A stretch of DNA of 34,080 nucleotides from an uncultured delta proteobacterium (GTDB lineage Bacteria; Desulfobacterota; Desulfobaccia; Desulfobaccales; 0-14-0-80-60-11), in NCBI GenBank assembly GCA_963812015.1, contig CAWETI010000005.1:1-34080 (forward strand), given 5' to 3'. How positions within the stretch are numbered: position 1 is the first letter of the stretch; each line of letters begins with the position of its first letter. This document shows positions 15,237 through 33,554 of this stretch, one piece after another. Position numbers and translations under genes: made by a program. A model generated the notes under the pieces. The model did no database searches. It was not told the origin of the DNA and was given only the letters and a program-made list of their open reading frames with translations.

Positions 15237-16256
15237 ATGAACTTGGCGGAATTACGGGAAAACGCTAAAGAAAAACTTAAGGGTTATTGCCGGGTCTGTC
15301 CGATCTGCAACGGCCGGTCCTGTGCCGGCGAAGTGCCGGGCATGGGCGGCGTCGGTACGGGCAGCGCTTTTGCGGCCAATCTGGAAGCCTTGAGCCGGCA
15401 TCGTTTCAATATGCGGGCGATACATGATGTCAAGGCGCCGGATACCTCGTTCGAGCTCTGGGGAGAAAAGCTCTCCATGCCCATTCTGGCCGCGCCGTTG
15501 ACCGGGGTTACCTACAACATGGGCGGGCAAATCTCGGAAGAAAGTTTCATCCAGGAAATCATGGCAGGCTGCCGGCTGGCCGGCACCCTGGGCATGTGCG
15601 GCGATGGCGCCGATCCGGAAATGTATAATGGTGGCCTGAAAGCCGTGGCCGAGCATAACGGCAAGGGCATCCCGGTTGCCAAACCCCGGGAACAGGGGGA
15701 AGCTATCAAACGCCTCAAGGGGGCCGAAGCCGCCGGGGCCCTGGCCGTGGGCATGGATATAGACGGGGCCGGCCTCATTACCATGGCCCTCAAAGGCCAA
15801 CCCGTCGGTCCCAAAAGCTTTGAGGAGATCAAGGAACTGATTGGGGCGACGCGGCTGCCGGTTATCCTCAAGGGGGTCATGACCCCTGAGGAAGCGGACC
15901 TGGCCCTGGCCGCCGGGGCCGCGGCGATCGTGGTCTCCAACCATGGGGGGCGGGTCCTGGATCACACCCCCGGGGCGGCCGAGGTTCTGCCTGACATCGC
16001 GGCTCGAGTCCAGGGCAGATTGCTCATTTTGGCTGACGGCGGGGTGCGTTCCGGCAGCGATGTCCTCAAACTCCTGGCTTTAGGGGCCGACGCGGTTCTC
16101 GTCGGTCGCCCGCTGGTTATCGGGGTCATGGGCGGTGGCCGGGAAGGGGTGGCCTTTTTACTGAATAAATTGAAAAGCGAGCTTATCCAAGCGATGCTCT
16201 TGACCGGCGCTGCGGATGTCAAAACGGTGCCCCGGGCCATTCTCTTTGGCGGTTAA
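15237..16256 (+). CDS. FMN-dependent alpha-hydroxy-acid (L-lactate) dehydrogenase, with N-terminal Cys motif
   Basis: CRVCPICNGRSC, ILKGVMT, VVSNHGGRVLD, DGGVRSGSDV and LVGRP. Confidence 0.9.
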   Translation: MNLAELRENAKEKLKGYCRVCPICNGRSCAGEVPGMGGVGTGSAFAANLEALSRHRFNMRAIHDVKAPDTSFELWGEKLSMPILAAPLTGVTYNMGGQISEESFIQEIMAGCRLAGTLGMCGDGADPEMYNGGLKAVAEHNGKGIPVAKPREQGEAIKRLKGAEAAGALAVGMDIDGAGLITMALKGQPVGPKSFEEIKELIGATRLPVILKGVMTPEEADLALAAGAAAIVVSNHGGRVLDHTPGAAEVLPDIAARVQGRLLILADGGVRSGSDVLKLLALGADAVLVGRPLVIGVMGGGREGVAFLLNKLKSELIQAMLLTGAADVKTVPRAILFGG

Positions 16257-16419: not shown

Positions 16420-16782
16420 CTAGGGTAAGGACGTGCCACCGTTTAGCCGAACTGAGCCGGCACCCTCGCCCAAAATCACTTCCCGGACCAGGGGAGCCAC
16501 TTCCCGGCGCACCGCCTCGAGGCTGGCTTGACCCTCGGGGGTAATTTCATAGTATTTGCGCACCCGCCCCTTATAAACCCTGAGACGCGAGGCCAGCAAG
16601 CCCGCCTGCTCCAGCTGATGGAGGAGGGGATAGAGGCTGCCCGGGCTGATGCGGTAGCCTTTCTCCCCCAGGAATTTGCTCAGCCGGCCGCCATACACCG
16701 GCCCCTGGGAGGCCCGGTGCAGGACCACCAGCCGGGTCAGGCCCTGCCAGAACGATTGGCAAATCTGGTTTTTATCCGTCAC
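16420..16782 (-). CDS. PadR-family transcriptional regulator
   Basis: YG..L, ISPGSLYPLLHQLEQAGLL and RKYYEITPEG. Confidence 0.9.
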   Translation of the reverse strand: MTDKNQICQSFWQGLTRLVVLHRASQGPVYGGRLSKFLGEKGYRISPGSLYPLLHQLEQAGLLASRLRVYKGRVRKYYEITPEGQASLEAVRREVAPLVREVILGEGAGSVRLNGGTSLP

Positions 16783-16806: not shown

Positions 16807-16899
16807 TTAGCTAACCTATAGGCTGCGGTTGATTTTTCGTTATTTTTCACTTAGGTTACGGTTAGCATAAGGTTGTCATCGGGTTAAAGGAGGGATCCC

Positions 16900-17202
16900 A
16901 TGGCTCTGATGGATGATGGTTTGAAAGGCGCCGTGCCCAGCATCCTGGTGGTTTTGGGGGTGGCCATGGCCGCGCCCATAGTCCTGCCGGCGGTGGCGGC
17001 GGTGTCCCGTCCCCTGGCCAAGACTTTGATCAAGGGATATCTGGTGCTGGCCGATACCATTAAGGAGTTTGCCGCGGAAGCCGGGGAGCAGGTGGGTGAC
17101 CTGGTCGCGGAAGTCAAAGCCGAGCGGGCGGCTACGGTTGGCGCGACGGTGGCGGCTGCGGCGGCGGCTGCCAAGGGCACCAAGACCAAGGCATCCGGTT
17201 AA
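16900..17202 (+). CDS. DUF5132-like small membrane protein
   Basis: RBS AGGAGG; hydrophobic ILVVLGVAMAAPIVLPAVA followed by RPLAKTLIKG...EAGEQVGDLVAEVKAE. Confidence 0.75.
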   Translation: MALMDDGLKGAVPSILVVLGVAMAAPIVLPAVAAVSRPLAKTLIKGYLVLADTIKEFAAEAGEQVGDLVAEVKAERAATVGATVAAAAAAAKGTKTKASG

Positions 17203-17575: not shown

Positions 17576-17916
17576 ACCCGGCCTCCTCAGGTTACCCTTG
17601 CCGATCACCGCGCCTCAGGGCGCCGCCGTTAAGTCCAGCCCGTGAATCTTATTTTCCCTGCTTATATTTGTAAAAGGACAATATTACCGGTTAATGTCAA
17701 CTTGGTTAATATTTGGTTAATTTTAATCAATGCTGATTCTAACGGTCTCAGGCCCTAAATAATCCCTGAGGAAAATCACTTCCCTTAGCCGGGTGTTTGT
17801 GGCATACTCAAGGACATCAAGCCGGGTAATTTAACGGCGCGTTGTTATTAGACGCGAATCAAGCTTTGGGCTGGCTTTGGGGTTATCCGTAAATGATGAT
17901 TAGAGGATAAAAGCCT

Positions 17917-19218
17917 ATGAGAAAGACGTACATCTTAGATACCAATGTTTTGCTGCACGATCCCGATTCGTTGTTTTCTTTTGAAGATAATGCCATAGTG
18001 TTGCCGCTGTCGGTAGTTGAAGAGTTAGACCGTATTAAAAGAAGAAGTGACGAAGTTGGCAGGAATGCCCGGGAAGTATCCAGAAAATTGGACGAATTGC
18101 GGGTGAGAGGGCGGTTGTCGGAAGGAGTGGAACTGGCCAATGGCGGGTCGGTCCGTATTGAGATTAACGGTAATAAACCGGAGAATCAGCCATACGGCAT
18201 TGATTTAAATATCATTGACAACAGGATTCTGGCCCTGGCCTATGCGCACATGAATAATGGCCAGAGCCCGGTCATCCTGGTCACCAAAGATTTAAACCTG
18301 CGCATCAAGGCGGATGTCTTGGGGTTGGCCGCCGAAGATTTTTACAGCGATAAGGTGGATTATCATCAATTATACAGCGGCGTCAGAGAGTTGTACCTTG
18401 CCCCTGAAGCCATCGACCGGTTTTATCAAGAGGGGTCCCTGGAATATAACGACGGGGATCTGCACCCCCACCAGTTCTGCATCCTGAAACTGGGCGAATC
18501 GTCGTCAAAATCCGCCCTGGCCCGATATGGTCACCGCCGGCTCAATAAGCTGGCCCATGACGGCAAGGCGGTCTATGGCATCAAGGCGTTGAACAAGGAG
18601 CAGAAGTTCGCTCTGGATCTGCTCCTGGATGATGCTGTCCAGGTAGTGACCCTGGTGGGTAAGGCCGGCACCGGCAAGACCATCCTGGCCCTGGCGGCCG
18701 GGCTGGAAAAGGTCCTGGAAGGGGCCGGCAGATACAACCGTATCCTCATCACCCGGCCCATCGTGCCTTTGGGCAACGACATCGGCTACCTGCCCGGCGA
18801 CAAGGAAGATAAGATCAGGCCCTGGATGCAGCCCATTTACGACAACCTGGAATATCTGTGCAACGAACATATTCAACCCAACGGCTGCATCGATTATTTG
18901 ATCGCCAACGGCAAGATCGAACTGGAGGCTTTGACCTATATCCGGGGCCGGAGCATCCCGAAACAGTTTATCATCTGTGATGAGAGCCAAAATTTGAGCC
19001 CCCATGTGATCAAGACCATCCTCACCCGGGTGGGGCGGGGCAGCAAGATCATCTTCACCGGCGACCCGGAGCAGATCGACCATCCCTATCTGGACGCCTC
19101 CTCCAACGGCCTCAGTTACCTGGTGGAGAAAATCAAAGAGGAAGAAATATCCGGGCACATCACCCTGCTCAAGGGCGAGAGGTCCGGGATCGCCGAATTG
19201 GGCGCCAGGTTGCTGTAA
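17917..19218 (+). CDS. PIN-PhoH protein (PhoH2/YlaK type)
   Basis: PIN YILDTNVLLHDP...VVEELD...DNRIL...LVTKDLNLRIKA; PhoH GKAGTGKT, IGYLPG, YIRGRS, DESQN and TGDPEQID. Confidence 0.92.
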   Translation: MRKTYILDTNVLLHDPDSLFSFEDNAIVLPLSVVEELDRIKRRSDEVGRNAREVSRKLDELRVRGRLSEGVELANGGSVRIEINGNKPENQPYGIDLNIIDNRILALAYAHMNNGQSPVILVTKDLNLRIKADVLGLAAEDFYSDKVDYHQLYSGVRELYLAPEAIDRFYQEGSLEYNDGDLHPHQFCILKLGESSSKSALARYGHRRLNKLAHDGKAVYGIKALNKEQKFALDLLLDDAVQVVTLVGKAGTGKTILALAAGLEKVLEGAGRYNRILITRPIVPLGNDIGYLPGDKEDKIRPWMQPIYDNLEYLCNEHIQPNGCIDYLIANGKIELEALTYIRGRSIPKQFIICDESQNLSPHVIKTILTRVGRGSKIIFTGDPEQIDHPYLDASSNGLSYLVEKIKEEEISGHITLLKGERSGIAELGARLL

Positions 19219-19459
19219 GTGCGTCCCAGCGCGGCGCCCCGCCGTTGCCGCCCCTAAAGTGCGTCTGATTGCCCCGGCTATTCAGGGGCAGAGTATTCTT
19301 GCCGATATATATCGTAATCTTTTTATTGGGGTCCGGCCCAAAGTCGAGTATATATAGGGTAACGGCTCCAGAGGATAACTAGTAGTTTTCTATTAGGATT
19401 TGGTTAGCATCGGCTTTAAGGCGATTGCACGGGGCCCAAGGAGAACGCCGACTCTGGTC

Positions 19460-19747
19460 ATGGACGGATTCGAGGTAATGCATTCCCAGCCGGGGCAACT
19501 CAGCCTGGCCGTTGACAAACTCAAAGGCAACGATGACCTGGCCCGGGCCGTCCAGGCCGATTTGGGCGCCATCCGGGGTATCTACTCGGTGGAGGCCGAC
19601 CCTGCCCAGGGCCTGTTGGTGGTTGCCTACGATAAACAGCAGTTAATGTCTCTCATGTCGCTGCTCGCCTTGAAATCCGCCTTTGCCACTTTTTTCCCGG
19701 AAGTAAATGCCATGCAGCTGGCGGCCTGGCTCAGCCAGAGCCTATAA
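19460..19747 (+). CDS. Stand-alone HMA-like (HMA_2-type, no CxxC) domain protein
   Basis: VMHSQPGQLSL...LGAIRGIYSVEADPAQGLLVVAYD aligns by eye with the N-terminal domain of the downstream ATPase. Confidence 0.7.
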   Translation: MDGFEVMHSQPGQLSLAVDKLKGNDDLARAVQADLGAIRGIYSVEADPAQGLLVVAYDKQQLMSLMSLLALKSAFATFFPEVNAMQLAAWLSQSL

Positions 19748-19946: not shown

Positions 19947-20041
19947 GCCATGACATTGCCTATTGTTATTGGGTGGCTATAATTAAAACATCTTAAGATT
20001 TACCGTTTGTATCCCGAGATCAGTCTCCGGAGGAAGGAATC

Positions 20042-20770
20042 ATGGCTGAAAAAGAACCGCGTGAAGCGAAAGGGATCGGCGACATGCTGGGCCAGGCCGG
20101 CACCACCGTGAAGGACGGCATCGTGGGCAGCCTCAAGGGGTTGCATGAGATCGAGGGCCAGATCGTCACCGTGGCGAGAGGCGCCGTTACCGACGCCCTG
20201 AAGACCACCGGCGCGGTGGCCACGGAAACCCTCAACGTGACCCGGGATGTTTTCCAGGGGGCGATTAAGGCCGCCGAGGAAGTGGGTTCCGGGCTCATCG
20301 TCAGCACCAAGAACGTGGCCAAGGGCATCATCCTGGGCGTCAGCGACGTGGGGGGGGATGTGGAGGCCGCGGCCAGCGAATTGGTCAAAGGCGCGGTCAA
20401 GGGCGCGGCGCAAATCGGCGGCGACGCCGCCCAGGTGGCCAAGAGTGCAGTCACCGGGGTCATCGAGGGCGCGACGGAGATCGGCGGCAACCTGGGCGGC
20501 ACCGCCAAGGCGGCCATCGGCGGCGCTTTAGAAGCCGCGGGCACCCTGGGCCAGAGCGCGGTCAAGAGCATCAGCGACATCCTGGTGGGGGCCGTGGAAG
20601 GGGTCAAGGAAGTGGCCTGCGCGGCCTGGCCGAAGTCCAAGGCCACTGCCGAGCCCCCGGATGAGACCAAGCCGGTTCCCGAGACTCATGCCGAGCAGAA
20701 AACCTCCCGGAGCAAAGGTGAGCCTGCGGCGGAAAAGCCCGGCAAAGGTGAGAAGTGGACACCGGCCTGA
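20042..20770 (+). CDS. Ala/Gly/Val-rich protein with about eight tandem 22-aa amphipathic repeats
   Basis: RBS GGAGG; e.g. VGSGLIVSTKNVAKGIILGVSD / VGGDVEAAASELVKGAVKGAAQ / IGGDAAQVAKSAVTGVIEGATE / IGGNLGGTAKAAIGGALEAAGT. Confidence 0.8.
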   Translation: MAEKEPREAKGIGDMLGQAGTTVKDGIVGSLKGLHEIEGQIVTVARGAVTDALKTTGAVATETLNVTRDVFQGAIKAAEEVGSGLIVSTKNVAKGIILGVSDVGGDVEAAASELVKGAVKGAAQIGGDAAQVAKSAVTGVIEGATEIGGNLGGTAKAAIGGALEAAGTLGQSAVKSISDILVGAVEGVKEVACAAWPKSKATAEPPDETKPVPETHAEQKTSRSKGEPAAEKPGKGEKWTPA

Positions 20771-20822: not shown

Positions 20823-23800
20823 ATGGTTCAGGCAATCCATACCGCGGTGGCGGGGCGGGTGAGGTTTAAGGTCGAGGGGCTCTACCGCTCCGAGGCCCTG
20901 AAGCGCACCCTGGAGGCCCATCTGGCGCGGCTCCAGGAGATTTCCCACGTCTCGGCCAACGCCCTGACGGGCAATGTCCTGGTATGCTTTAACTCGGGCA
21001 ACAATCCCCACACCATCGCCTCCCTGATCGAAGAAATCGTTGCAGACTTTCACCGCCATCTCCCCGACGTCGGACCGGAGGAGGCGCGGCCTGCTGCAGC
21101 CGGCCCCTCCCGGGCGGCCGCGGCGCCGCCTTCGCCCATCGCCAGATTAACGGCCCTGTTGTCTTGGACGGAGGCCCAGCCCGAGGGCCCCTGGCATCTT
21201 ATGGAGGCGGACGCGGTGTTGGCCACCCTGAAAACCTCCCAAACGGCAGGTCTGTCCCGCCAGGCGGTCAAGCGCAACAGCCAAAAATACGGCCCCAATG
21301 TCCTGCCCGAGGCCGAGCCCCGCTCCGGCTGGGAGATCTTTTCCCAGCAGTTCAAATCCCTGCCCGTGGCCCTGTTGGGGGCGGCCGCGGGCATTTCGGT
21401 GCTCACCGGGGGCGTCCTGGACGCGGTGCTGATCATGGGCGTGGTCACCATTAACGCCTTCATCGGCTACAAGACCGAAAGCGACGCCGAAAAGACCATC
21501 CGCTCCCTCCAAACCCTGGTCCGGCCCACGGCCCTGGTCATCCGGGCAGGCCGGATGCACGAAATCTCCGCGGCGGACCTCACTTTGGGGGATCTCCTGG
21601 TCCTGCGCCCGGGCAGCTATGTGGCGGCCGACTGCCGGCTGGTGGAGGCCACCCACCTGTCAGTGGATGAATCCGCCCTGACCGGGGAAAGCCTGCCCGT
21701 GGTCAAAACCACCGAGGCCTTGACCACGCCCAATATTCCCCTGGGGGACCGGCGCAACCTGGGTTTCATGGGGACCCTGGTGACCGGCGGGGAAGGGCTG
21801 GCCGTGGTGGTGGCCACGGGAAGTTATACGGAGATCGGCAAGATTCAAACCATGATGGGGGAAGCCACCACCCCGGAGACCCCGATGCAGCGCCAGTTGG
21901 GCCAGGTGGGCGATCAACTGGTGCTGGTGTGTTGCGGAGTATGCGGGGTGGTGTTCCTGGTGGGCTTTGCCCGGGGCCTGGGGCTCCTGGCGATGCTCAG
22001 GACCTCCATCTGCCTGGCGGCCGCGGCGGTGCCGGAAGGACTGCCCATGGTGGCCACCACCACCCTGTCCCTGGGCATCCGGGATATGCGGCGGCACAAG
22101 GTCTTGATCCGTCATCTGGACGCGGTGGAAACTTTGGGGTCCCTCCAGACCATCTGCCTGGACAAGACGGGCACTATCACCCGCAACGAGATGGTCGTCG
22201 TCGAGATCTTTACGGGCATGCGGTCCCTCCGGGTGGAGGGGGAGCGCTTTGTGGCGCCCGCCGGGTTGGTCTCTCCCTCCGCCTGTATGGAACTGCAACG
22301 GCTCCTGATGATGTCGGTGCTGTGCAACGAGACCGAAATTTACCGGGAAGGCGAGGCCTACCGGCTCCAGGGGACCCCCACGGAGGCGGCCCTGGTGCAC
22401 CTGGCCCTCAAGGTGGGCATCGATGTTTTCGCCTTGAGGCAGCAGTATCCGGTGCTGCGGATTAACTACCGCTCGGAAAACCGCCAGTTCATGGGCTCGC
22501 TCCACGATGAGCCGGCGGGGCGGAAGCTCGTGGCCATCAAGGGCAGTCCCCAGGAAGTCCTGGCCATGTGCACCGTGCACCTCAAGGATAACCAGGTGCT
22601 GCCCCTGACCGAGGCAGACCGGCAGGAAATCGAGGCCGAAAATGAACGTATGGCCGGGCAGGCCCAACGGGTCCTGGGAGTGGCCTACTCCGACCGGAAA
22701 GATCTGGTGAATGGCGAGCTGCCCAGCAGCCTGGTGTGGCTGGGCATCGTCGGCATGGCCGACCCCATCCGGGAGGGGGTGCGCGAGGCCATTGCCGCCT
22801 TCCACGGCGCCGGGATCGAGACCATTATGATTACCGGCGACCAAAGCGCCACGGCCTATGCCATCGGCAAGGAATTGAACCTCAGCCAGGCCGACCCGCT
22901 GGAAATCCTGGACTCCACCCACCTGGCCGATATTGATCCGGAAACCCTGCAAGCCCTGGCCAAGCGGGCCCACGTGTTCGCCCGGGTCAGCCCCGCCCAT
23001 AAGCTGCAGATTGTCCAGGTCCTCCAGCAGGCGGGCAAGGTGGTGGCCATGACCGGGGACGGGATCAATGACGGCCCCGCCCTCAAGGCCGCGGATGTGG
23101 GGATCGCCATGGGCAGCACGGGCACGGATATCGCCCGGGAGGTGGCCGACGTGGTGTTGGAAGAAGACAACCTGGACACCATGATCATCGCCATCCGGGA
23201 TGGACGCACCACCTATAATAACATTCGCAAATCCGTCCATTTTTTCCTGGCCACCAATTTGAGCGAGATCATGTTGACCTTCACGGCCCTGGCGGTGGGG
23301 CTGGGGGCTCCCCTGAACGCCATGCAGTTGTTGTGGATCAACCTGATCTCCGACATCTTCCCGGGATTGGCCCTGGCTATGGAGGCGCCGGAGCCGGATA
23401 TCATGACGCGCCCCCCCCGGGATCCCCAGCGGCCGATCTTTAACCGGTCCGACTTCAAGCGGATGAGCTTCGAGGGCGCGGCCATGACCGGCGGGGCCCT
23501 GGGGGCCTTCGGTTACGGGATCATGCGCTACGGCATGGGCGCCCGGGCCAGCACCCTGGCCTTCCACGGCCTCACGACCGGCCAGCTCCTCCACGCCCTC
23601 AGTTGCCGTTCGGAACAGCACAGTCTGCTGGGCCCCGGCAGCCTGCCCCCCAACCGCTACCTGACCCTGGCCCTGGGGGGCTCCCTGGCGGTACAGGCAT
23701 TAACCGCGGTGGTCCCCTGGTTCCGGACCATACTCGGTCTGACCCCCCTCGGCCTGGTGGATGCCCTGGTGGTGGCCGGCGCCGCGGTCCTGCCCCTTTT

Positions 23801-23858
23801 GGTGAATGAGGCCACCAAGCAGCCCCCCGCCGAGGCAGAGGAAGAAGAAATCTCGTGA
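20823..23858 (+). CDS. P2A-type (Ca2+-type) P-type ATPase with N-terminal HMA-like domain
   Basis: DESALTGES, VPEGLP, DKTGT, KGSP, MITGD, GDGINDGPAL, TNLSEI and QLLWINLISD; N-terminus HTAVAGRVRFKV...SANALTGNVLV. Confidence 0.93.
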   Translation: MVQAIHTAVAGRVRFKVEGLYRSEALKRTLEAHLARLQEISHVSANALTGNVLVCFNSGNNPHTIASLIEEIVADFHRHLPDVGPEEARPAAAGPSRAAAAPPSPIARLTALLSWTEAQPEGPWHLMEADAVLATLKTSQTAGLSRQAVKRNSQKYGPNVLPEAEPRSGWEIFSQQFKSLPVALLGAAAGISVLTGGVLDAVLIMGVVTINAFIGYKTESDAEKTIRSLQTLVRPTALVIRAGRMHEISAADLTLGDLLVLRPGSYVAADCRLVEATHLSVDESALTGESLPVVKTTEALTTPNIPLGDRRNLGFMGTLVTGGEGLAVVVATGSYTEIGKIQTMMGEATTPETPMQRQLGQVGDQLVLVCCGVCGVVFLVGFARGLGLLAMLRTSICLAAAAVPEGLPMVATTTLSLGIRDMRRHKVLIRHLDAVETLGSLQTICLDKTGTITRNEMVVVEIFTGMRSLRVEGERFVAPAGLVSPSACMELQRLLMMSVLCNETEIYREGEAYRLQGTPTEAALVHLALKVGIDVFALRQQYPVLRINYRSENRQFMGSLHDEPAGRKLVAIKGSPQEVLAMCTVHLKDNQVLPLTEADRQEIEAENERMAGQAQRVLGVAYSDRKDLVNGELPSSLVWLGIVGMADPIREGVREAIAAFHGAGIETIMITGDQSATAYAIGKELNLSQADPLEILDSTHLADIDPETLQALAKRAHVFARVSPAHKLQIVQVLQQAGKVVAMTGDGINDGPALKAADVGIAMGSTGTDIAREVADVVLEEDNLDTMIIAIRDGRTTYNNIRKSVHFFLATNLSEIMLTFTALAVGLGAPLNAMQLLWINLISDIFPGLALAMEAPEPDIMTRPPRDPQRPIFNRSDFKRMSFEGAAMTGGALGAFGYGIMRYGMGARASTLAFHGLTTGQLLHALSCRSEQHSLLGPGSLPPNRYLTLALGGSLAVQALTAVVPWFRTILGLTPLGLVDALVVAGAAVLPLLVNEATKQPPAEAEEEEIS

Positions 23859-23945
23859 GGCGTTGAAAAACGGTTAGTCACCCTGAGCATGCTTCCTTGG
23901 CCGGGAAGCCACCCCGCATGATGAAAAATTTACAGGATTTTCCTT

Positions 23946-25145
23946 ATGAGAAAAGACTTTGTGTTCAATTCCGAGTCCGTTACCGAGGGGCACCCGGATA
24001 AACTGTGTGATCAGATCAGCGATGCCATCGTGGACCACTTTCTGACCCAGGACCCCTTTGCCCGGGTGCGGGCCGAGTGCGCCATCTCCACCTCGATTCT
24101 GTTCATTGCCGCCCGGTTTGCCTCAGAAATCAAAGCGGATATCCCCAACCTGGCCCGCAAGGTAATCGGGCAGGTAGGCTATGTCCAGCCTGACTTTGAC
24201 GCCCGGACCTGCAGCATCTTGACCAGTCTCCAGGAGTATCCCTCCGACGCCGATCTCTTTTTCCATGAAAACCGGCTGTCGGAAGCCGAGATGGACCGGA
24301 TCCTCGTGCGACAGCAGGCCACGGTCTTCGGCTATGCCTGCCGGCAGACCGAGGTCTTGATGCCCCTGCCCATCTGGTTGGCCCATAAGCTGGCCCGCCA
24401 GTTGATCGCGGCCCGGCTCCAGCACCTGATTCCATACCTGTCCCCCGACGGCAAAACCCAGGTGGGCGTGGAATACCGGAACCGCAAACCCCGCCGGATC
24501 CACAGTATCACCATCATCGCCAGCCGCTCCAAATCCGCCGCGGCTAGCGTCAATATGAAGCAGCTCCATGACGATGTGATGGAAGCGGTGATCCGGCCAA
24601 CCTTTGTCGGCGAAGCCATCCGGCCGGATGACCAGACCATGATATTCATCAATCCGGTGGATAATCTCATGGTCGGGGGCCCGTCAGTGCATTCCGGTCT
24701 CACCGGCCGCAAAACCGACGTGGACCTGTACGGCGATTACGCCCGGCAGGGCGGCAATGCCCTCAGCGGCAAGGACCCCATGCGGATTGATCGGGTGGGA
24801 ACGTATGCGGCCCGCTATGCCGCCAAGAACCTGGTGGCCGCCGGCCTGGCGGAAGAATGTGAGGTGCAGCTCAGCTATTCCATCGGCCAGCCCCGGCCGG
24901 TGAGCATCATGGTGGAGACCTTCGGCACCGGCAAGCTCCCGGATGACGACCTGGCCCATTTGGTGGAGCAACACTTCGATTTTCGTCTGGCCGGCATCCT
25001 CAAGCGCTTTCAGCTCCGGCAGTTGCCGGCCCTCCACAAAGGCAAATTTTACCAGAAACTGGCGGCTTACGGACAGGTGGGGAGGGTGGACCTGAAGCTT
25101 CCCTGGGAAGAAACCGACAAAATCAGCCTGCTCCAAGAGCAATAA
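23946..25145 (+). CDS. metK: Methionine adenosyltransferase-like protein (divergent paralogue)
   Basis: SESVTEGHPDKLCDQISDAI, MPLPIWLAH, PDGKTQV, GLTGRK, SGKDP and AAYG; the GAGDQG motif is replaced. Confidence 0.85.
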   Translation: MRKDFVFNSESVTEGHPDKLCDQISDAIVDHFLTQDPFARVRAECAISTSILFIAARFASEIKADIPNLARKVIGQVGYVQPDFDARTCSILTSLQEYPSDADLFFHENRLSEAEMDRILVRQQATVFGYACRQTEVLMPLPIWLAHKLARQLIAARLQHLIPYLSPDGKTQVGVEYRNRKPRRIHSITIIASRSKSAAASVNMKQLHDDVMEAVIRPTFVGEAIRPDDQTMIFINPVDNLMVGGPSVHSGLTGRKTDVDLYGDYARQGGNALSGKDPMRIDRVGTYAARYAAKNLVAAGLAEECEVQLSYSIGQPRPVSIMVETFGTGKLPDDDLAHLVEQHFDFRLAGILKRFQLRQLPALHKGKFYQKLAAYGQVGRVDLKLPWEETDKISLLQEQ

Positions 25146-25206
25146 CGATGTCCCCGGAAAGTCTTCCGGTAGCGGAGGCGAAGGCTTAGGTGCCCAAGTT
25201 TCACAT

Positions 25207-25236
25207 AAAAAAGGCAACCCGGATTCTGGGTTGCCT
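25207..25236 (-). terminator. Rho-independent terminator of ssrA
   Basis: AGGCAACCC/GGGTTGCCT stem with a U-run on the minus strand. Confidence 0.8.
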
Positions 25237-25264
25237 GGTTAATTGATCAACTTGTTTAAGTAAT

Positions 25265-25611
25265 TGGTGGAGGCGGCGGGAGTCGAACCCGCGTCCGCCA
25301 ATAGTCCCTGGAAGCTTCTACATGCTTAGCCGGTGTTTTAGTTTCGCCCCCGAAGACTTCCACTGGCAGAATTCCCAGAGGCTATCCCGCTTGAGTTTTC
25401 GTCCGCCAACCCGCAGGCCTTATTGGCAGCTTTGCCAGGATGCCGTCATCTGGAGCCCTCTCCCGGCGTCGAGTTCCAGATGCTAGCCTTAAGCGGCTAG
25501 AGCGTAGCCGTAGTTGTCGGCAATTATGGTTTTCCTACCCGTTTAACGAGCGGACAGGACCTCGGCATGCAACTTACAGTTCTCCATTCACGTCGAAGCC
25601 GTTACGCCCCC
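25265..25611 (-). ncRNA. ssrA: tmRNA
   Basis: 5' GGGGGCGTAACGGCTTCGAC; 3' GGTTCGACTCCCGCCGCCTCCACCA; tag frame (A)ADNYGYALAA* at 25521-25489. Confidence 0.97.
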
Positions 25612-25619
25612 GTATTTAA

Positions 25620-25648
25620 ATTATAATCATTACTTGAGGTTTCCGCAA
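25620..25648 (-). promoter_or_regulatory. ssrA sigma70 promoter
   Basis: TTGCGG-17-TATAAT on the minus strand. Confidence 0.7.
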
Positions 25649-25684
25649 GCCCCCCTGCCCGGCGATTAAACGGTACCGGGCGCC

Positions 25685-26323
25685 CTAGCGGTTCGCCTGG
25701 AATTGCCGGGCCGCCCCCATCAAACGGTAGACCGAAGCGCCGGAGAGAGCGGCGATGTCCTCGGTGGGCAAATACCCGGGGATGGTTTCATCGAAGAGGA
25801 TATTGGCCTCGGGGGGAAATTCCTCGTCTCCGCCCCAGAGGATGTGGGTGATGGGCACCTTGGGAAAGGCCAGGAATCGGGCCGCGGCATCCCCCAGGGG
25901 CTGGGGCTCGCCTCCCAGGCTCGCCGCCACCTTGACGTAGAGCGCCAGATCGTGGCCGAAGGTCTCCAGCAAGGGCTTTTTGGCCCGGGAGACGAAGGCG
26001 GACCAGTAAAACCCGCCTTCCGGAACCTGGCGGAAATCGATGCTCCGGCCGGAGGGGGGCTCTCCCGAGGCGTTGAGCAGGTAGTGGAGGATGAGGATTT
26101 GCTCCGGCAGGGAAATCTCGCCGGCGCCGTTGACCGGGGTCACGCCGATCTCGGGCCAGGAGATGCGCCGCGCCTGCCCGAAATAGGGCACGATGAGGCC
26201 CTCGTGGGCCGCTTCGACAAAGTGTTGAGCGCCGGTGCGGTTCTCCAGCCGCTTGGGATTTATCTTCTGCAATTCCGCCACGGCCAGGGCGATGGCTGTC
26301 TTATAATCATCGATGCGGGGCAT
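25685..26323 (-). CDS. DUF3786-like protein
   Basis: QILILHYL, FRQVPEGGFYWSAF, FPKVPI..ILWGGDEEFPPEANILFD and LPTED. Confidence 0.85.
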   Translation of the reverse strand: MPRIDDYKTAIALAVAELQKINPKRLENRTGAQHFVEAAHEGLIVPYFGQARRISWPEIGVTPVNGAGEISLPEQILILHYLLNASGEPPSGRSIDFRQVPEGGFYWSAFVSRAKKPLLETFGHDLALYVKVAASLGGEPQPLGDAAARFLAFPKVPITHILWGGDEEFPPEANILFDETIPGYLPTEDIAALSGASVYRLMGAARQFQANR

Positions 26324-26493
26324 ACCGCCTCCCTTCAGTAATAGGTGCCGGATCGAGGCGGGCGGGTGCGGCAGCCGGCCACAGCCCGGCAGTGGCCCGG
26401 GGGGCGCCTTAATCCCGGTCCGGTCCGAGCTGCCGGTGAGGCACCTTCAGGGAAAAGCATATCATACTTGGCGTTTAGGCCAAAAAATTTCTA

Positions 26494-26522
26494 TTGACAC
26501 GGCGAAGGGAATATTTTAGGCT
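26494..26522 (+). promoter_or_regulatory. sigma70 promoter of the aromatic amino acid operon
   Basis: TTGACA(26494)-17-TAGGCT(26517). Confidence 0.65.
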
Positions 26523-26546
26523 GATTTAAGGTCGAGGGAATCAAAA

Positions 26547-26633
26547 ATGTCATCCTGCTGGGTCCGGTACTTTTATTTTAGCTTTTATTATTATCCGGGC
26601 CAGGAGTGCGCCTCGACTTTTAAAAGAATGTAG
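26547..26633 (+). CDS. Tyr/Phe/Trp-rich attenuator leader peptide
   Basis: MSSCWVRYFYFSFYYYPGQECASTFKRM*, preceded by GAGGG and followed by a terminator. Confidence 0.8.
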   Translation: MSSCWVRYFYFSFYYYPGQECASTFKRM

Positions 26634-26654
26634 GCACAACGAAAAAAATCTTTT

Positions 26655-26693
26655 AAAAGCCGTGGCGCAGGCGAGGCGACCACGGCTTTTTTT
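26655..26693 (+). terminator. Attenuator terminator
   Basis: AAAAGCCGTGG...CCACGGCTTTTTTT upstream of the first structural gene. Confidence 0.85.
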
Positions 26694-26749
26694 ATCCGGC
26701 GGCTGTGGGGTCTCAAAGCCTTTCAGGCGGCGCGGCGAGGGAGGAGCAA

Positions 26750-27547
26750 GTGGTCGGCAAACAGATTCGCATGGAACGCATTATGAACCGGGACACGGGG
26801 CGCACGGTGATCGTGCCCATGGATCACGGCGTCACGGTTGGCCCCATTGAAGGCCTGATCGACATGAAGACCACCGTCAACGCGGTGGCCAGCGGCGGGG
26901 CCAATGCCATTCTGATCCACAAGGGGCTGGTGTCCAGCGGCCATCGCCGCCGGGGCAAGGACGTGGGGTTGATCATTCACCTGTCGGCCTCCACCGCCCT
27001 GTCACCCTACCCCAATGCCAAGACCCTGGTATGCACCGTGGAGGAAGCCATAAAGTTGGGGGCGGACGCCCTCTCCATTCACGTCAACGTGGGGAACGGC
27101 TCCGATCAGGAGATGCTGGCCGACTTGGGCCGGGTGTCCCGGGAAGCCCGGGAATGGGGCATGCCGCTCTTGGCCATGATGTACCCCCGGGGCGAAAAGA
27201 TTAAGGATGAATATGATCCCCAGGCCATCAAGCACGTGGCCCGGTTGGGGGCGGAGCTGGGGGCGGACATCGTCAAGGTGTCATACACCGGTTCGGTGGA
27301 GTCATTCCGCCAGGTGGTGGCCGGCTGTCCGGTGCCGGTGGTCATTGCCGGCGGCGCCAAGATGAATTCGGACCGGGACATCCTGGAGATGGTGCAGGGA
27401 GCCATCGAGGCCGGGGGGGCCGGGGTGTCCATCGGGCGCAATGTCTTCCAACACCGGGACCCCAGCCGGATGGTGGGGGCGATGAGCATGCTGGTGAATG
27501 AAAACTCCGGGGTCGAAGAGGCCCTGTCCTTTCTCCAGGCCGTGTGA
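26750..27547 (+). CDS. 2-amino-3,7-dideoxy-D-threo-hept-6-ulosonate synthase (AroA', class I aldolase family)
   Basis: [28 protein letters not shown] and GRNVFQ; followed by DHQ synthase II. Confidence 0.88.
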
Positions 27548-27561
27548 GCCAGGACGCCGCC

Positions 27562-28554
27562 ATGAAAAAACTATGGGTCAAAATTGATCCCTGGGACAAA
27601 AAGCTCGTGACCACCGCCCTGGAGAGCGGGGTGGACGCGGTGTGGGTTCCCCCGGGCCGGAGCGGCGACGTTAAGGCCCTGGGGCTCATCACCGTGGTGG
27701 CCCCGGATGGCGATCTGGTGCCGGGCCAGGATGTCCATGAAGTCGCCATTCAAAGCACCGCCGACGAAGCCGAAGTCGTCCGTCTGGCCCGTGGCGGGCC
27801 GGTGGTGGTGCGCACTCCGGACTGGACCATCATTCCCCTGGAAAACCTGGTGGCCCAGAGCCGCAATATTTTCGTGGAAGTGGGCGAGGTGGACGAGGCC
27901 CGCACCGCCCTGGGCGTGCTGGAAAAGGGCGTGGACGGCCTGGTGGTCACCAATCCCACCCCGGCCCTGATCAAACAAATCGCCCGCCTGGTGAAAGAGG
28001 CCTCGCCGCCGGTGGAGTTGACCACGGCCCGCATCACCGGCTTGCGGCCCCTGGGCATGGGCGACCGGGTCTGCGTGGATACCTGCAGCAACCTGGGCCT
28101 GGGGGAAGGGATGCTGGTGGGCAACTCTTCCGGGGGCCTGTTTTTGGTGCATGCCGAATCCCTGGAAAACCCTTACGTCGCCCCCCGGCCCTTCCGGGTG
28201 AACGCCGGGCCCGTGCATGCCTACATCCGGGTCACCGGGGATAAGACCAGGTACCTGGGGGAACTGGCGGCCGGGGACGAAGTTCTCGTCGTCAATCACC
28301 AGGGGCGCACCACTGCCGCGGTGGTGGGCCGGGTCAAGGTGGAGCGCCGCCCCTTGATGCTGGTGAATGCTGAGGCCGGCGGCCGGGAGATTGCCACGAT
28401 TTTGCAAAACGCCGAGACGATCCGCCTCACCCGCGCCAGCGGCGAGGCCGTGTCCATCGTCACGCTCAAACCTGGGGATGAGGTGCTGGTGGCCCTGGAA
28501 GAGACGGGCCGCCACTTCGGCCACAAAATCCAGGAAACCATCCTGGAGAAATGA
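27562..28554 (+). CDS. 3-dehydroquinate synthase II (AroB')
   Basis: [32 protein letters not shown] and LQNAETIRL. Confidence 0.92.
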
Positions 28555-29642
28555 CCATGACGGAAAAAGAAGCCATTCGCAATCAGATTGACGCCCTGGA
28601 CCGGGAAATCCTGAAACTGCTGAACCAGCGCCAGACCCAGGCCCAGGCCATCGGCCGCATCAAGAACCAGGAAGGGCGGGGCACCCTGGATTTTCAGCGG
28701 GAAGAAGAAGTCCTGGCCCATCTCATGCATCTGAACCCCGGCCCCTTGAGCCCCTCGGCCCTGCGCAATATTTTTCGGGAGATCATCTCCGCCGCCCGGG
28801 AGGTCCAGATTCCCTTCGGGGTGGCGTTCCTGGGGCCCGAGGCCACCTTCTCCCACCTGGCGGCCTTGAAAAAATTCGGCCGGGCCACCCGCTTCGGCCC
28901 CATGGCCACCATCCAGGAGGTCTTTGCCGAAGTGGAGAAGGGCAAATATCAGTACGGGGTGGTGCCCATCGAGAATTCCACCGAAGGCATCGTGAATATC
29001 TCCTTGGACCTGTTTGCCGAGACCTCGGTGAAGATCTGCGGGGAGATCTACCTGGAGGTCTCCCACGACCTGGTGTCCAAATCCGGGCAGCGGGCCGATA
29101 TCGAGGTCATCTACACCCACCCCCAGGCTTACGCCCAGTGCCGCCGCTGGCTGGGGACGCACCTGGGGGAGATTCCCATCCTGGAGGTGGCCTCCACCGG
29201 GGTGGCGGCCCAGAAGGCGGCCAAAAACCCCAACGCCGCCGCCATTGCCAGCGCCTTCGCGGCGCCCCTCTATGACCTCAGGGTGGTGGAGTCCCGCATC
29301 GAGGATAACCCCGGCAACGTCACCCACTTCTTTGTCATCGGCATGGATGCCCCCGGACCCACCGGCAAGGACAAGACCTCCATCATCTTTGCGGTGGACA
29401 ATATCCCCGGGGCCCTCCATAAGACCCTGCGGCCCCTGGCGGACCGGGACCTCAACATGACCCGGATCATTTCCCGGCCCGCCAAAAACGAGGCCTGGCG
29501 CTACCTCTTCTTCGTGGACGTGGACGGCCACATAACCGAGCCCAAAGTGGGAGAAGCGATGGCGGAAGTGGAGAACATCAGCGCCCACTTCAAGCTCCTG
29601 GGCTCCTTCCCCCGGGCCGCCGGCGTGGAGAATTTGAGTTGA
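28551..29642 (+). CDS. pheA: Chorismate mutase / prephenate dehydratase
   Basis: RNQIDALDREIL, FLGPEATFSH, VPIENSTEG, ACT domain and LGSFP. Confidence 0.95.
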   Translation: MTMTEKEAIRNQIDALDREILKLLNQRQTQAQAIGRIKNQEGRGTLDFQREEEVLAHLMHLNPGPLSPSALRNIFREIISAAREVQIPFGVAFLGPEATFSHLAALKKFGRATRFGPMATIQEVFAEVEKGKYQYGVVPIENSTEGIVNISLDLFAETSVKICGEIYLEVSHDLVSKSGQRADIEVIYTHPQAYAQCRRWLGTHLGEIPILEVASTGVAAQKAAKNPNAAAIASAFAAPLYDLRVVESRIEDNPGNVTHFFVIGMDAPGPTGKDKTSIIFAVDNIPGALHKTLRPLADRDLNMTRIISRPAKNEAWRYLFFVDVDGHITEPKVGEAMAEVENISAHFKLLGSFPRAAGVENLS

Positions 29643-30480
29643 AGGCGAGAGATGATTTTGGGAAAGGGGGCCAGGGGCGGCAAGCCCCTGCCCCCTCTCC
29701 CAAGCCCTCACCCCCAACCCCTTACAGGGGGCTGGGAGGGGAGTTTGAGGGGAGGGCGGGGGACTCGACGTCCCCCGGCTCTCCCCTCAAATCAAAATCG
29801 AAACCCCTCCGCATTTGCGTGCCGGTGGTGGAGGCCACGGTCAACCGGGCCCGGGGCAAATATCAGCGGGCCGCCCGGAAGGGGTTGTGGACCGAGATCC
29901 GCCTGGACTATCTCGAGGAGCCGGCCCCGAATCTGGCGCGCCTGTTTCGGACCCTGCCGGGGCCGGTGATCGCCACCAACCGCCTGGCTGCGGAAGGTGG
30001 CCGCTGGCAAGGGGATGAGCTGGACCGCCTTAACCTCCTTTCGGAGGCCCTGGATCTTGGCGTGACCTGCCTGGACGTGGAGCTGGCCGCGGACCCCGCC
30101 TGGCGCCGTGAGATCGCGGCCCGCCGGGGGGCCACCCGCCTCATCCTGTCCTGGCACGATTTTGCCGGCACCCCGGAGACGGCCCGGCTGGAGGCGGTCC
30201 TGGCGGAAATGCTGAATGCCGAGGCGGACATCGTCAAACTGGTCACCCTGGCCCGGCAGCCGGAAGACAATGTGCGCCTCTTGTCCCTCATCCCCCGGGC
30301 CAAAGCCCAGGGCAAGGAAATCATTGCCTTTTGCATGGGGCCTCTGGGAAAATGGTCCCGGGTGGCGGCGCCCCTGATGGGGAGCTGGCTCAGCTTCGCT
30401 CCTTTCAGTAACACGGGGCCTCGGCCCCGGGCCAGCTCACGGTGAACGACCTCAAGCGGGTGTGGAACACTTTGAAATAG
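29639..30480 (+). CDS. aroD: Type I 3-dehydroquinate dehydratase (frameshift near 30410; repeat-derived N-terminal insert)
   Basis: ICVP, EIRLDYL, IATNR..EGG, ILSWHDF, DIVKL and FCMG; SAPGQ lies in another frame ending TAG at 30480. Confidence 0.88.
29659..29791. mobile_element. Short double-hairpin MITE-like repeat, copy 2
   Basis: Homologous to 14575-14696; lies between the pheA stop and the conserved part of aroD. Confidence 0.6.
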
Positions 30481-30487
30481 CTCCTAT

Positions 30488-30541
30488 GTAGGGCGGGCAC
30501 TGCCCGCCATCCTTTTAATCGTAGGGTGCGCACCGCGCACC
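30488..30541 (+). repeat. Two tandem GTAG-type REP-like palindromes
   Basis: GTAGGGCGGGCACTGCCCGCC and GTAGGGTGCGCACCGCGCACC. Confidence 0.65.
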
Positions 30542-30563
30542 ATAAATATACTGAGCACGCCAA

Positions 30564-31375
30564 ATGACCATCGACGGCCATACCAAAATCTTCGGCATCC
30601 TGGGGCGGCCCGTGACCCATTCCCTGAGCCCCGCCATGCACAACGCCGCCTATCGCCACCTGGGAATCAACGCGGTCTATGTGGCCTTTCCGGTGACCGA
30701 CCTGGCCCCGGCCGTCGCGGGCTTAAGGGGTCTGGGGATCGGCGGGGTGAGCGTCACCATCCCCTTCAAGGAAGAGATCATCCCCCTGCTGGATGACCTG
30801 GACCCCCAAGCCGCTAAAATCGGCGCGGTGAACACCGTGGTCAACCGGGACGGCCGGCTCACCGGCTACAACACCGACTGGATCGGGGCGATGACCGCGC
30901 TCACGGCCAAAATCAGCCTCAAGAGCCGGCACGTCCTCATCCTGGGCGCCGGGGGGGCCTCCCGGGCCATCGCCTACGGCATTTTTCATCAGGGGGGTAA
31001 AGTTACCTTGACGGACATCGATACCGCCCGGGCCGCGGCTATGGCCGGGGACCTGGGGGCCGAGGCCATCCCCCCGGACGCCCTGGACCGCTGCCCCGCC
31101 ACCATCCTGGTGAACGCCACCCCGGTGGGCATGACCCCGACCTGGACGGGATTCCCCTAGACCCGGACCTGCTGGGCCGCTTCGGGGTCGTCATGGACAT
31201 CGTCTACCAGCCCCTGGCCACCCGGTTGCTCAAGGAAGCCCAAGCCCGGGGCGCCGCCACCATCGACGGCCTCCAAATGCTCATCCACCAGGCCACGGCG
31301 CAGTTTGAGCTGTTCACCGGCCAGGAAGCGCCCGCGGAGGTCATGTCCCGGGCGGCGTATGCGGCCCTAGTTTAA
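30564..31375 (+). CDS. aroE: Shikimate dehydrogenase (frameshift near 31140)
   Basis: HSLSPAMHN, VTIPFK, GAVNT, GYNTD, LGAGGA and NATPVGM; then MDIVYQP and DGLQMLIHQA in the next frame. Confidence 0.92.
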
Positions 31376-31413
31376 TGATTTTTGGATCAACAATCTGAGA
31401 GCGGGGCAGTGTT

Positions 31414-32245
31414 ATGGAGCCTATTCCGATTCGTAATTGGATACAATTAATTGAGAACCTGAATGAGTTAAAAAATACAAACGATAATTGGATTTTCCGG
31501 GGACAATCACATTATGATTCTTTAAAAACAAGCCTCGAGCGAGCGCTTGATGACTACGGTATTTGTTTAAATAGAGCCCCGGAGATCGAGGAACAATTAA
31601 TAAGAGACTTTCAGAGAAGGTATCAAGGACCTGATCTTGCCCTCGTCTTAAGTGATACCTTGTATTGTCTCTCCTTAATGCGCCATCATGGTGCTCCAAC
31701 GAGGCTGTTGGACTGGACTTATTCACCATATGCTGCCGCATTCTTTGCATTGGAGGAAGGGTTGAAGCATAAGGGATATATGTGGTGTTTAAATGAAAAA
31801 TGGATAAGTGATAAAGCAAAATCAATAGCAGGAGATGAATTGATAGGGAGGCGTAACCAAGACGTTAATCGTTGTGATAATTCTTTTAGAGAGCTTTACA
31901 TCAATAGGAAAAATAGTAAACCATACCAGATAGTTTTCGCCGAAAATCCATTCATGCTTAACGAACGCTTAATTGTACCAGAAAGGGGGATTTCTCTGTC
32001 CTGGAGATGTATCGGAGAGCTTCGAATATAATTTTAAAACTTTAAGCGAGTGTAATGACAAATCTAGAATAAGAATATTATGTTTTGAGATGCTAAGCGT
32101 AGATCATATTTTTGCAATCGAGCAATTATTATTAATGAATATAAGTCGTGATAGTTTGTTCCCGGGATTAGATGGGTTTGCTCAATCTCTTAAACAAAAA
32201 TTGCCACTCTATACAAAAATGGCAGAAAACCAAGTCGGACAATAA
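31414..32245 (+). CDS. FRG-domain protein, AT-rich (frameshift near 31978)
   Basis: WIFRGQS and MRHHGAPTRLLDWTYSPYAAAFFA; ERLIV then QKGGFL after a frame change; SLFPGLDG. Confidence 0.88.
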
Positions 32246-32282
32246 AAGGGTGCCCATAACGATCTAATTTGCTTACTGTGTT

Positions 32283-33554
32283 ATGATAAAAAAATCGATT
32301 AAAGAAATTTATCCCTTAGTTCAAGTCCAGGCCACTCTCACCCTGCCCGGCTCCAAGAGCTACACCCACCGGGCCCTCATGGCCGCGGCCCTGGCCGCGG
32401 GGGAGAGCGTCCTCACCAATGCCCTCACGGCCGAAGACACCGAGCTCACGGCCCAGGCCCTGGCGCAGTTGACCGCTGCCCTCGACTGGCAGGGCAGCAC
32501 TATCCGGGTGACGGGCCGGGCAGGCCGCTGGCTGCCGGTGCCGTTGCCCTTTTACCTGGGCGAATTACCGGGCGCCTCCATGCGCTTCCTCACGGCCCTG
32601 GCGGCCTTGGGAGAGGGCGAGTACCTCCTCACCGGCACCGGGGGCCTCCTGCCAGCGGCCCCTGGGGGAACTGCTCACCGCCCTGGGACAGATCGGGGTC
32701 GAAGCTGCCTCCGAGAAAGGCGACGGCTGCCCCCCGGTGCGGGTGGTGGGCGGCCTCACCGGCGGCCGGGCGCAGCTCTCCGGCTCCATCAGCAGCCAGT
32801 ACCTCTCGGCCCTACTCTTCATCGGGCCCCTGGCTCCTAAAGGCCTCGAGATCGACATCACCGGCGACCTGGTGTCCCGGCCCTATGTGGACCTGACCCT
32901 GGAGGTCCTCAGCGACTTCGGCATTACGTATTACCGGGAGGGGTACCGGTTTTTTCAGCTCCCCGGCGGCCAGGGTTATCTCCCCCAGGACTACGAGATC
33001 GAGGCCGACGCCTCCAGCGCCTCGTATTTCTGGGCCGCCGCGGCCTTAACGGGGGGCAGGGTCACCATCACTAACCTGAGTCTGGAATCCAGCCAGGGGG
33101 ACGCGGCCTTCCCGAAGGTGCTGGAGCGCCTGGGCTGCGCCATCGGGTCCAGCCCGGCGGGGCTCACCGTGACAGGCGGGCCCTTAAAGGGGGTGACAGT
33201 GGACATGGCGACCATGCCGGAATCTCGTCCCCACCCTGGCGGTGCTGGCCGCCTTGACCAGGGCGACACCGTCATCACCGGGGTGGCTCGCCTGCACCAC
33301 AAGGAGTCGGACCGTCTGGCCGCGGTGGCGGCGAAAACTGCCAAGCTGGGCATCGAGGCCCGGGAGACCGAAGACGGCCTGGTCATCCGGGGCGGGGCGC
33401 CCCGGGGCGCGGTCATTCACACCTATAACGACCACCGCCTCGCCATGAGCTTCGCGGTGGCCGGGCTTAAGGCCGCAGGGATGCGGATCGCCAGCCCGAC
33501 TGCGTGGCCAAGTCCTTCCCGGACTTCTGGGAGTTTTTCGCCCGGCTATATTAG
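32283..33554 (+). CDS. aroA: EPSP synthase (several apparent frameshifts)
   Basis: LPGSKSYTHRAL, ISSQYLSALL, SRPYVDLT, DASSASYF, KESDRL, DHRLAMSF and KSFPDFW across frames. Confidence 0.92.

Follow-up and report, generated by a model that had tools for sequence, protein, structure and literature searches.

Why does a bacterium keep, next to the gene for a calcium-type pump, a homolog of the SAM synthetase MetK in which the methionine-binding residues have been exchanged, and what might this protein do there? Bacterial MetK proteins are regarded as a family with one function. Proteins of the kind described here pass the curated metK model and therefore appear in cyanobacteria, Nitrospirota and Thermodesulfobacteriota under the annotation of a second SAM synthetase. 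The case that we analyzed lies on a contig of an uncultured delta proteobacterium; in the following, the window refers to the whole analyzed stretch of this contig, 34,080 nucleotides in length. An original prediction, made from the sequence of the window, had held that the protein is not a housekeeping SAM synthetase, but possibly a (tri/poly)phosphatase, an enzyme with another nucleophile or nucleotide, or a regulatory partner of the pump.

We give a probability of roughly 0.58 to the reading that it is a putative non-SAM-forming, pump-bound subunit with the MAT fold, which would bind and probably hydrolyze a phosphoanhydride and would couple the pump to phosphate status. If this is true, evolution has turned the MAT fold into a dedicated subunit of a P2A pump, and that pump has itself exchanged an ATP-pocket residue that is otherwise strongly conserved. 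To our knowledge, P2A pumps have no known enzyme-fold subunit.

A MAT-fold protein with a rebuilt methionine site

The MetK-like paralogue (23946..25145, + strand) is encoded by an uninterrupted ORF of 399 aa, full length as originally predicted, and combines a rebuilt methionine pocket with a retained triphosphate/metal site. All three MetK Pfam domains (PF00438/PF02772/PF02773) are present, and the TIGR01034 score of 371.6 lies above the cut-off of 309.4. An AlphaFold2 model from a 140-row alignment (pLDDT 96.1) retrieves MATs in all matches listed by Foldseek, the best with a TM-score of 0.89 and an rmsd of 1.9 Å (E. coli MAT, 8bb1/7loo). With three MAT domains and the MAT fold, the protein belongs to the MAT/MetK structural superfamily.

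According to the texts of three studies (PMC1282579, PMC8727953, PMC7271947), Q98, D238 and E55 of MAT contact methionine, D163, R229, F230 and S99 contact adenosine, and H14 is the acid for C5'-O5' cleavage. We aligned the protein with E. coli MetK, whose numbering was taken from an annotated record (L033). The metal and triphosphate ligands H14, D16, E42, K165, R244, K245, K265 and D271 are all present, as H16, D18, E44, K170, R255, K256, K276 and D282, and K17 and D163 (here D168) are kept as well. The methionine ligands E55, Q98, D238 and K269 have become R57, Y98, H249 and R280. The codons of the three basic residues that recur below lie on the + strand at 24114..24116 (R57; E55 is a ligand of the methionine amine), 24690..24692 (H249; D238 is a ligand of the methionine amine and the ribose O3') and 24783..24785 (R280). 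On the adenosine side, D163 is retained, and R229, F230 and S99 are replaced by N240, L241 and P99; further exchanges are G117 to R122, D118 to Q123 and T227 to V238. Every retained residue and every substitution listed in the original prediction is found in this alignment, which adds one change absent from that list, A40 to R42. The protein is a member of the MAT fold family, but judged by its aligned residues it fails the methionine-site test for MetK.

At six methionine-side positions, the net charge changes from -2 in E. coli to +3.5 in this protein, with values between +1.5 and +4 across 77 clade members, and we infer that an anion may now lie where methionine sat. In human MAT, as reported in the text of PMC6850014, D258G and K289N (equivalent to D238 and K269) lower SAM synthesis and leave the phosphatase unaffected, and S114A (equivalent to S99) retains 2.5% of SAM synthesis and keeps the phosphatase. 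These mutants lose synthesis and keep phosphatase activity, and the two half-reactions are therefore separable. By alignment, the residues lost from the MetK-like family are those of the first half-reaction, SAM synthesis.

Another contig of the genome (C2) carries a canonical metK, complete in its ligands and adjoining an ahcY-like gene; the paralogue is hence not the sole metK of the genome. A canonical-type match occurs in all 27 paralogue-carrying relatives (of 61 relatives), and a canonical metK in 5/5 cyanobacterial genomes checked, which supports the prediction that the protein is not a housekeeping SAM synthetase. An apparent duplicate of the MetK-like gene on contig C3 results from an overlap within the assembly (10.7 kb at 99.5%). 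That the protein is a functional SAM synthetase with a compensated pocket, as its database annotation implies, appears very improbable to us. TIGR01034 is matched by 41/41 aligned clade members, the fold is the same, archaeal MATs form SAM despite a diverged site (as described in the text of PMC8727953), and Q113A, equivalent to the loss of Q98 alone, leaves 75% activity in human MAT (in the text of PMC6850014). However, both amine-binding acids are now basic, K269, S99 and D118 are also replaced, and a canonical metK accompanies the paralogue in every genome checked.

Three of the five cyanobacterial genomes checked (G061, G062 and G063; L191-L193) have two MetK-like copies each; in L193, the second copy is accompanied by a pump of its own. 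A MetK that groups with that of E. coli (L190), found on a contig of 15 kb in a cyanobacterial genome (G065:C40), reflects contamination or transfer. Among long MetK matches, 46/81 contain PF14890 and PF14528, which we take to be intein and LAGLIDADG domains.

Conservation and origin of the family

The original prediction would have been weakened by substitutions that vary among orthologs. In the query and its best 120 database matches (n=121, 66-92% identical), the signature E55R/D238H/K269R is instead conserved in 119-121 of 121 proteins: R57 in 121/121, H249 in 120/121 and R280 in 119/121. A broader set comprises the best 80 of 598 GTDB pattern matches, of which the 79 with an ORF >300 aa were used for residue counts; the 80 come from Thermodesulfobacteriota, Nitrospirota, cyanobacteria, Binatota and Gammaproteobacteria. 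Among these 79, D238H occurs in 79, K269R in 78 and E55R in 74; the D238H count is partly selected, as one scan pattern held the His, whereas the count of 120/121 is free of that. R244, K245, K265, D271 and R272 are found in 79/79, and D16, K17 and E42 in 78 plus one truncation. Other positions vary: H14 is kept in 72, K165 in 66, F230 in 46 and D118 in 11. The original claim that H14 and K165 are retained thus holds for this protein, but neither is invariant in the family (72/79 and 66/79); likewise, F230 and D118 are lost here, but not family-wide, with F in 46/79 and D118 kept in 11/79. H14 is Asn in 6 family members, and K165 is replaced by T/W/S/Q/A in 12/77 clade members and by G/Q/H in deep members. 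Also gone in the family are S99, I102, the glycines of the gating motif (GAGDQG) and the S186/Q188/H189 motif.

H14 and K165 of MAT act at the sugar end. Since both are dispensable in some members, the pattern points to binding or hydrolysis of a phosphoanhydride rather than to adenosyl transfer. D163 is D or E in 79/79 of the same GTDB set (79 of the best 80 of 598), which would allow for a nucleotide ligand; together with the mostly kept H14, this fits a nucleoside substrate and counts against our preferred reading. These residues are also the best argument for a nucleosidyl-transferase that uses a new anionic acceptor, or another NTP, and makes a SAM analogue or a signal acting on the pump: beside D163 (D/E in 79/79), H14 (72/79) and F230 (46/79) are frequent, and three near-invariant new residues line the acceptor pocket. 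Yet K165 is repeatedly lost, H14 can be Asn, S99, I102 and the S186/Q188/H189 motif are gone, and the neighborhood contains no conserved tailoring or user enzymes. We therefore regard a transferase as unlikely. The option of another nucleophile, raised in the original prediction, is less likely, as H14 and K165 are the very residues that the family tolerates losing.

Against 13 relatives, dN/dS is 0.12-0.24 for the MetK-like gene and 0.06-0.18 for canonical metK; the former range, which indicates purifying selection, and the new invariant residues rule out a decaying pseudogene. In IQ-TREE trees (quick search, SH-aLRT supports, unrooted), the signature sequences form one side of a branch with a support of 100, and the signature clade joins beside cyanobacterial MetK with supports of 95 and 94 in two trees. 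From the second tree, 35/82 rows had been dropped: 16 clade loci, and 19 others that were mostly long or unusual in composition. A 7-residue C-terminal insert is present in 77/78 clade members and 5/6 cyanobacterial MetK proteins, and at that length in 0/65 other canonical rows. Given this common insert and the tree position, the clade likely arose from a cyanobacterial-type MetK.

Two candidate features of the family were dismissed: an acidic helix before the gating motif, considered as a new Ca- or CoBaHMA-binding feature, already exists in cyanobacterial canonical MetK, and guanine specificity from T227D is not conserved in the present subgroup, which has V238. No clade member was found in 174 plasmid records (all <60% identity, best 47%) or in 11 viral loci.

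A calcium-type pump as fixed neighbor

Upstream of the MetK-like gene lies that of a P2A (SPCA/LMCA1-like) calcium-type P-type ATPase (20823..23858, + strand) with an N-terminal HMA_2/CoBaHMA-type domain. Among the best 80 of 598 GTDB matches, the pump ends <=400 nt upstream of the MetK-like gene in 76/80 loci; on inspection, the two genes are also adjacent at two further loci (L041 and, across a gap of 436 nt, L103), and the contigs of the last two loci are too short, so that the pump is directly upstream in 78/78 informative loci. The pump stop and MetK-like start overlap in 28/77 loci; the gap here is 87 nt. Across 61 relatives, pump and MetK-like gene are present in the same 27, in some of them as split or partial genes, and both are missing from the other 34 with the queries used, although these kin are not independent. 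In cyanobacteria (the phylum of G061), the MetK-like gene occurs in 13 of 151 genomes and the pump in 14; each of the 14 MetK-like copies has a pump next to it. The exception is an apparently intact cassette-type pump in G067 (L214:43-3153), which keeps the Arg and the docking strand described below and lacks a MetK-like gene downstream; the subunit is therefore not strictly obligate. At 91 metagenome and viral loci, a pump accompanies 6/6 signature genes with room upstream versus 0/57 canonical ones. Moreover, pairwise distances of pump and MetK-like protein correlate (Spearman 0.59, permutation maximum 0.29). Fusions of the Rosetta-stone type do not add to this picture: the 5/81 long matches that join pump and MetK-like parts are all singletons with deletions or frameshifts.

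The best PDB matches of the pump are SPCA1 and LMCA1, and its score lies below the TIGR01522 cut-off (636 vs 798). PEGL, N812/E815 of TM5, N840/D844 of TM6, DKTGT and the GDGxND residues are retained in 85/85 cassette pumps. In the N-domain, R550 (codon 22470..22472, + strand) replaces the adenine-stacking Phe, at the position of SERCA F487, where Phe stacks on adenine. This residue is Arg in 85/85 cassette pumps versus Phe in SPCA1 and in 22/23 control pumps, which were drawn mainly from one phylum. The lone control with Arg (L071:7034-10009) is a second, divergent cassette pump, whose N-terminus is HMA-like and whose gene follows directly after a MetK-like gene. TGDQ is likewise found in 85/85 cassette pumps, and both TGDQ and D697/S698 are clade-specific. 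The nucleotide-site residues T520/E521, K573, R616, R721 and K727 are intact in 85/85. At the level of aligned residues, these comparisons show that the nucleotide pocket of the cassette pump has been remodelled.

Cassette genes and Pho-type boxes

In relatives, a wider cassette often includes DUF5132, HMA_2 and Gly/Ala repeat proteins. Here, it includes a DUF5132 small membrane protein (16900..17202, + strand), and a PadR-family regulator (16420..16782, - strand), which is conserved in relatives of family f1, is divergent from the cassette. The segment 17203-19400 lacks the membrane-anchored HMA_2 and minus-strand HMA_2 genes of most relatives; a PIN-PhoH (PhoH2-like) protein (17917..19218, + strand) is inserted instead, as in some of the relatives only. 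It is followed by a stand-alone HMA_2 (CoBaHMA-type) protein (19400..19747, + strand; probable start ATG at 19460) and by a Gly/Ala-rich helical-repeat protein of 242 aa (20042..20770, + strand), which belongs to no Pfam or NCBIfam family and whose cluster occurs in 44/81 loci. A sigma70-like promoter consensus with a 10/12 match (19956..19983, + strand) lies upstream of the run of Gly/Ala, pump and MetK-like genes, in a region where sigma70-like matches in total do not exceed those in shuffles.

For regulatory sites, we built a matrix from 30 pstS promoters of relatives, each with a CTAACA-type double at an 11-bp period. Of all sites in the genome, the two with the highest scores precede the two pstS-like genes, one of which had contributed to the training set. 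Sites scoring >=12 number 44 in the 3.94 Mb genome; the window has one, a Pho-type box of two half-sites at the same 11-bp period (19391..19407, - strand), which scores 16.0 and ties for ranks 6-8 genome-wide. Two further elements with this period lie on the + strand: a perfect double GGTTAA repeat upstream of the PhoH2-like gene (17704..17720) and three GGTTAA-type half-sites between padR and the DUF5132 gene (16860..16887), one of 5 such triples in the genome with <=3 mismatches. Pho-type sites occur in the cassette loci of 16/20 relatives, nearly all of them intergenic, where ~0.2 would be expected per 18 kb. E. coli-type Pho hexamers are weakly enriched across phyla (3-5/62).

The 11-bp-period box is the same as that of pstS promoters, which is the sequence pattern of a Pho regulon. 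Pho-type control of the cassette is likely on this basis, with a regulator that we infer to be of the Pho type from the position of the boxes at pstS. The boxes face forward before the cassette genes in family f2 and are reversed in f1 and here; the reversed ones may serve padR or the minus-strand HMA_2 gene. That the strongest Pho-type box of the window faces away from the cassette counts against our preferred reading. Contigs from RNA runs of four studies span the C. fritschii cassette; they come without DNA control, levels or conditions.

A predicted complex of pump and MetK-like protein

We predicted the complex of a pump N/P fragment (residues 425-806) and the MetK-like monomer from paired alignments. 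The score was 0.61, compared with 0.01 for the best of three controls; the score mark is reached by 116/157 solved versus 2/215 mismatched pairs, counts that are approximate for our own alignments. Between runs, at least 95% of contacts are the same, and the partner has a pLDDT of at least 88. In the model, an edge strand of the MetK-like protein (residues 87-97; 24204..24236, + strand), with the clade-conserved S90, T93, S94 and E97, pairs with a strand of the pump P-domain (residues 692-701; 22896..22925, + strand) beside TGDQ, near Q674 and the N-domain helix before R616.

Clade-specific residues are overrepresented in the predicted contacts of the pump (9/31 vs 33/351, p=0.003), and seven of these nine had been listed before the fold. 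On the MetK side, such an enrichment is not significant (5/23, p=0.11), whereas the conservation gain at the interface is significant (0.36 vs 0.13). These tests are partly dependent on the fold, as they draw on the same alignments and the same conservation signal. The modelled docking surface is the interface between dimers in solved MATs, and it appears that this dimer-dimer face of the MAT tetramer has been reassigned to the pump. The use of a monomer and of paired alignments, and the choice of a surface that already serves as an interface, count against our preferred reading. The prediction supports direct binding of the two proteins. We know of no solved MAT-pump complex and of no MAT-fold subunit of P2A Ca2+-ATPases; a literature search for a MAT-fold subunit of P2A pumps also found none.

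The same cassette could be explained with no contact between the two proteins, by a free-standing tripolyphosphatase or exopolyphosphatase that is co-regulated with the pump and mobilizes Ca-polyphosphate stores under phosphate limitation. The separable half-reaction of MATs (text of PMC6850014), phosphatase ligands that are invariant while H14 and K165 vary, the Pho-type boxes and the nearby PhoH2 and pst genes all agree with such an enzyme. It would, however, leave the conserved new surface on both proteins and the complex prediction unexplained, as well as the fact that the fixed neighbor is the pump and not the other cassette genes, and we consider it improbable. Of the three options in the original prediction, the partner of the pump has gained the strongest support, through co-inheritance and the complex prediction, and the tri/polyphosphatase is compatible with it.

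A candidate mechanism

In the reading that we prefer, the MetK-like protein would derive from MAT and, rather than forming SAM, serve a Pho-regulated P2A calcium-type pump as an accessory subunit. Its former dimer-dimer face would dock on the P-domain strand beside the TGD motif, and a MAT dimer, which has two such faces, could bridge two pumps. The preserved site would bind, and probably hydrolyze, PPPi, short polyphosphate or an NTP, with R57, H249 and R280 holding extra anionic groups at the former methionine position. Acting as a regulator or nucleotide chaperone, the protein might convey this bound state to the pump, and the movement of Ca2+ (or Mn2+/Mg2+) would thereby be tied to the phosphate status of the cell.

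A bolder variant, which we hold to be doubtful, is that the pump is powered or primed by inorganic polyphosphate or another non-ATP donor, with the MetK-like subunit trimming or holding PPPi or polyphosphate and presenting it to the catalytic Asp of the pump, where Arg has taken over the adenine pocket. The loss of adenine-side contacts and the gain of cationic residues in both partners, the predicted docking at Q674 of TGDQ and the N-domain helix, and the Pho-type regulation would fit this idea. It is at odds with the nucleotide-site residues of the pump, which are intact in 85/85 cases, and with the MAT site, which is buried in the dimer; furthermore, Arg can stack on purine, and our literature search found no precedent. 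There is an equally small chance, in our estimate, that the pump, with the MAT-derived subunit docked beside its phosphorylation site, is run on or gated by tri- or polyphosphate from this subunit and that the two, with the DUF5132, CoBaHMA and Gly/Ala proteins, manage a Pho-controlled store of calcium polyphosphate. Should our preferred reading hold, the way in which bacteria couple calcium transport to phosphate or polyphosphate status could be tested directly in cultured cyanobacteria, for example Chlorogloeopsis fritschii PCC 6912, as could the use of a non-ATP donor by a P-type pump.

Relation to known systems

With bacterial MetK, whose nearest branch is cyanobacterial, the MetK-like protein shares the fold, the Mg, K and triphosphate ligands and the cyanobacterial C-terminal insert; it differs in E55R/D238H/K269R, its separate branch, the fixed linkage to a pump and the predicted use of the dimer-dimer face. 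The cassette pump shares ion-site and phosphorylation motifs with SPCA1, LMCA1 and SERCA, and is set apart by the N-terminal HMA_2 domain, Arg for Phe, the TGDQ and LDS motifs and Gln/His in TM8. A functional analogy may be drawn to KdpC, an accessory subunit proposed as nucleotide chaperone of the P-type ATPase KdpB; its fold and pump class are unrelated.

Three further systems resemble the cassette in composition. According to the main text of a preprint (bioRxiv 10.1101/2020.01.10.902569), the ferrosome locus fezABC encodes a P-type ATPase, small GxxxG membrane proteins and HMA-like R-rich proteins, and its granules hold Fe, P and O. A P-type ATPase with small membrane and HMA-like proteins is common to both, the cassette being known here from its genes; yet FezB is a P1B-6 pump, unlike the P2A-like cassette pump, and the term 'adenosyl' is absent from that main text. 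In the PacL/CtpC efflux platform, as its main text describes it (PMC9374683), a P-ATPase likewise needs an operon-encoded binding partner, but PacL is a small membrane scaffold, akin to the DUF5132 gene product rather than to an enzyme-fold subunit, and CtpC is a P1B pump. The neighborhood of ccyA (calcyanin) in Microcystis, in the main text of another preprint (bioRxiv 10.1101/2024.07.07.602159), has DUF5132 and HMA_2/CoBaHMA genes beside a calcium transporter, as found here, although that transporter is a Ca/H exchanger and ours a P2A pump; 'adenosylmethionine' has zero occurrences in this main text. Across the literature searched, mostly open-access main texts without supplements, we found no description of the MetK-like family or of the MetK-like/pump pair.

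Other features of the window

A tmRNA gene (25265-25611, - strand) lies directly downstream of the MetK-like gene, and a tRNA-Glu gene (1-74, - strand) at the contig end. We considered an island at the tmRNA and rejected it, as 0/20 loci of relatives show a tmRNA. Positions 1-11958 and 23367-34080 overlap with contigs C4 (99.8%) and C3 (99.5%, at its start) in alignments that contain numerous small gaps, and indel errors probably account for split ORFs such as the aroA-like one at 32283-33558. Short repeats at 861-951 and 14576-14652 have 89-94% copies elsewhere in the genome. By eye, we take 6100-16256 and 2474-4833 to hold a lactate-utilization cluster (permease, LutABC-like, GlcD-like, GntR) and cytochrome bd genes, and 26705-33558 to hold archaeal-type aromatic pathway genes followed by pheA/aroD/aroE/aroA-like genes, which are interrupted by a presumably FRG-like ORF of lower GC content (31414-32245).
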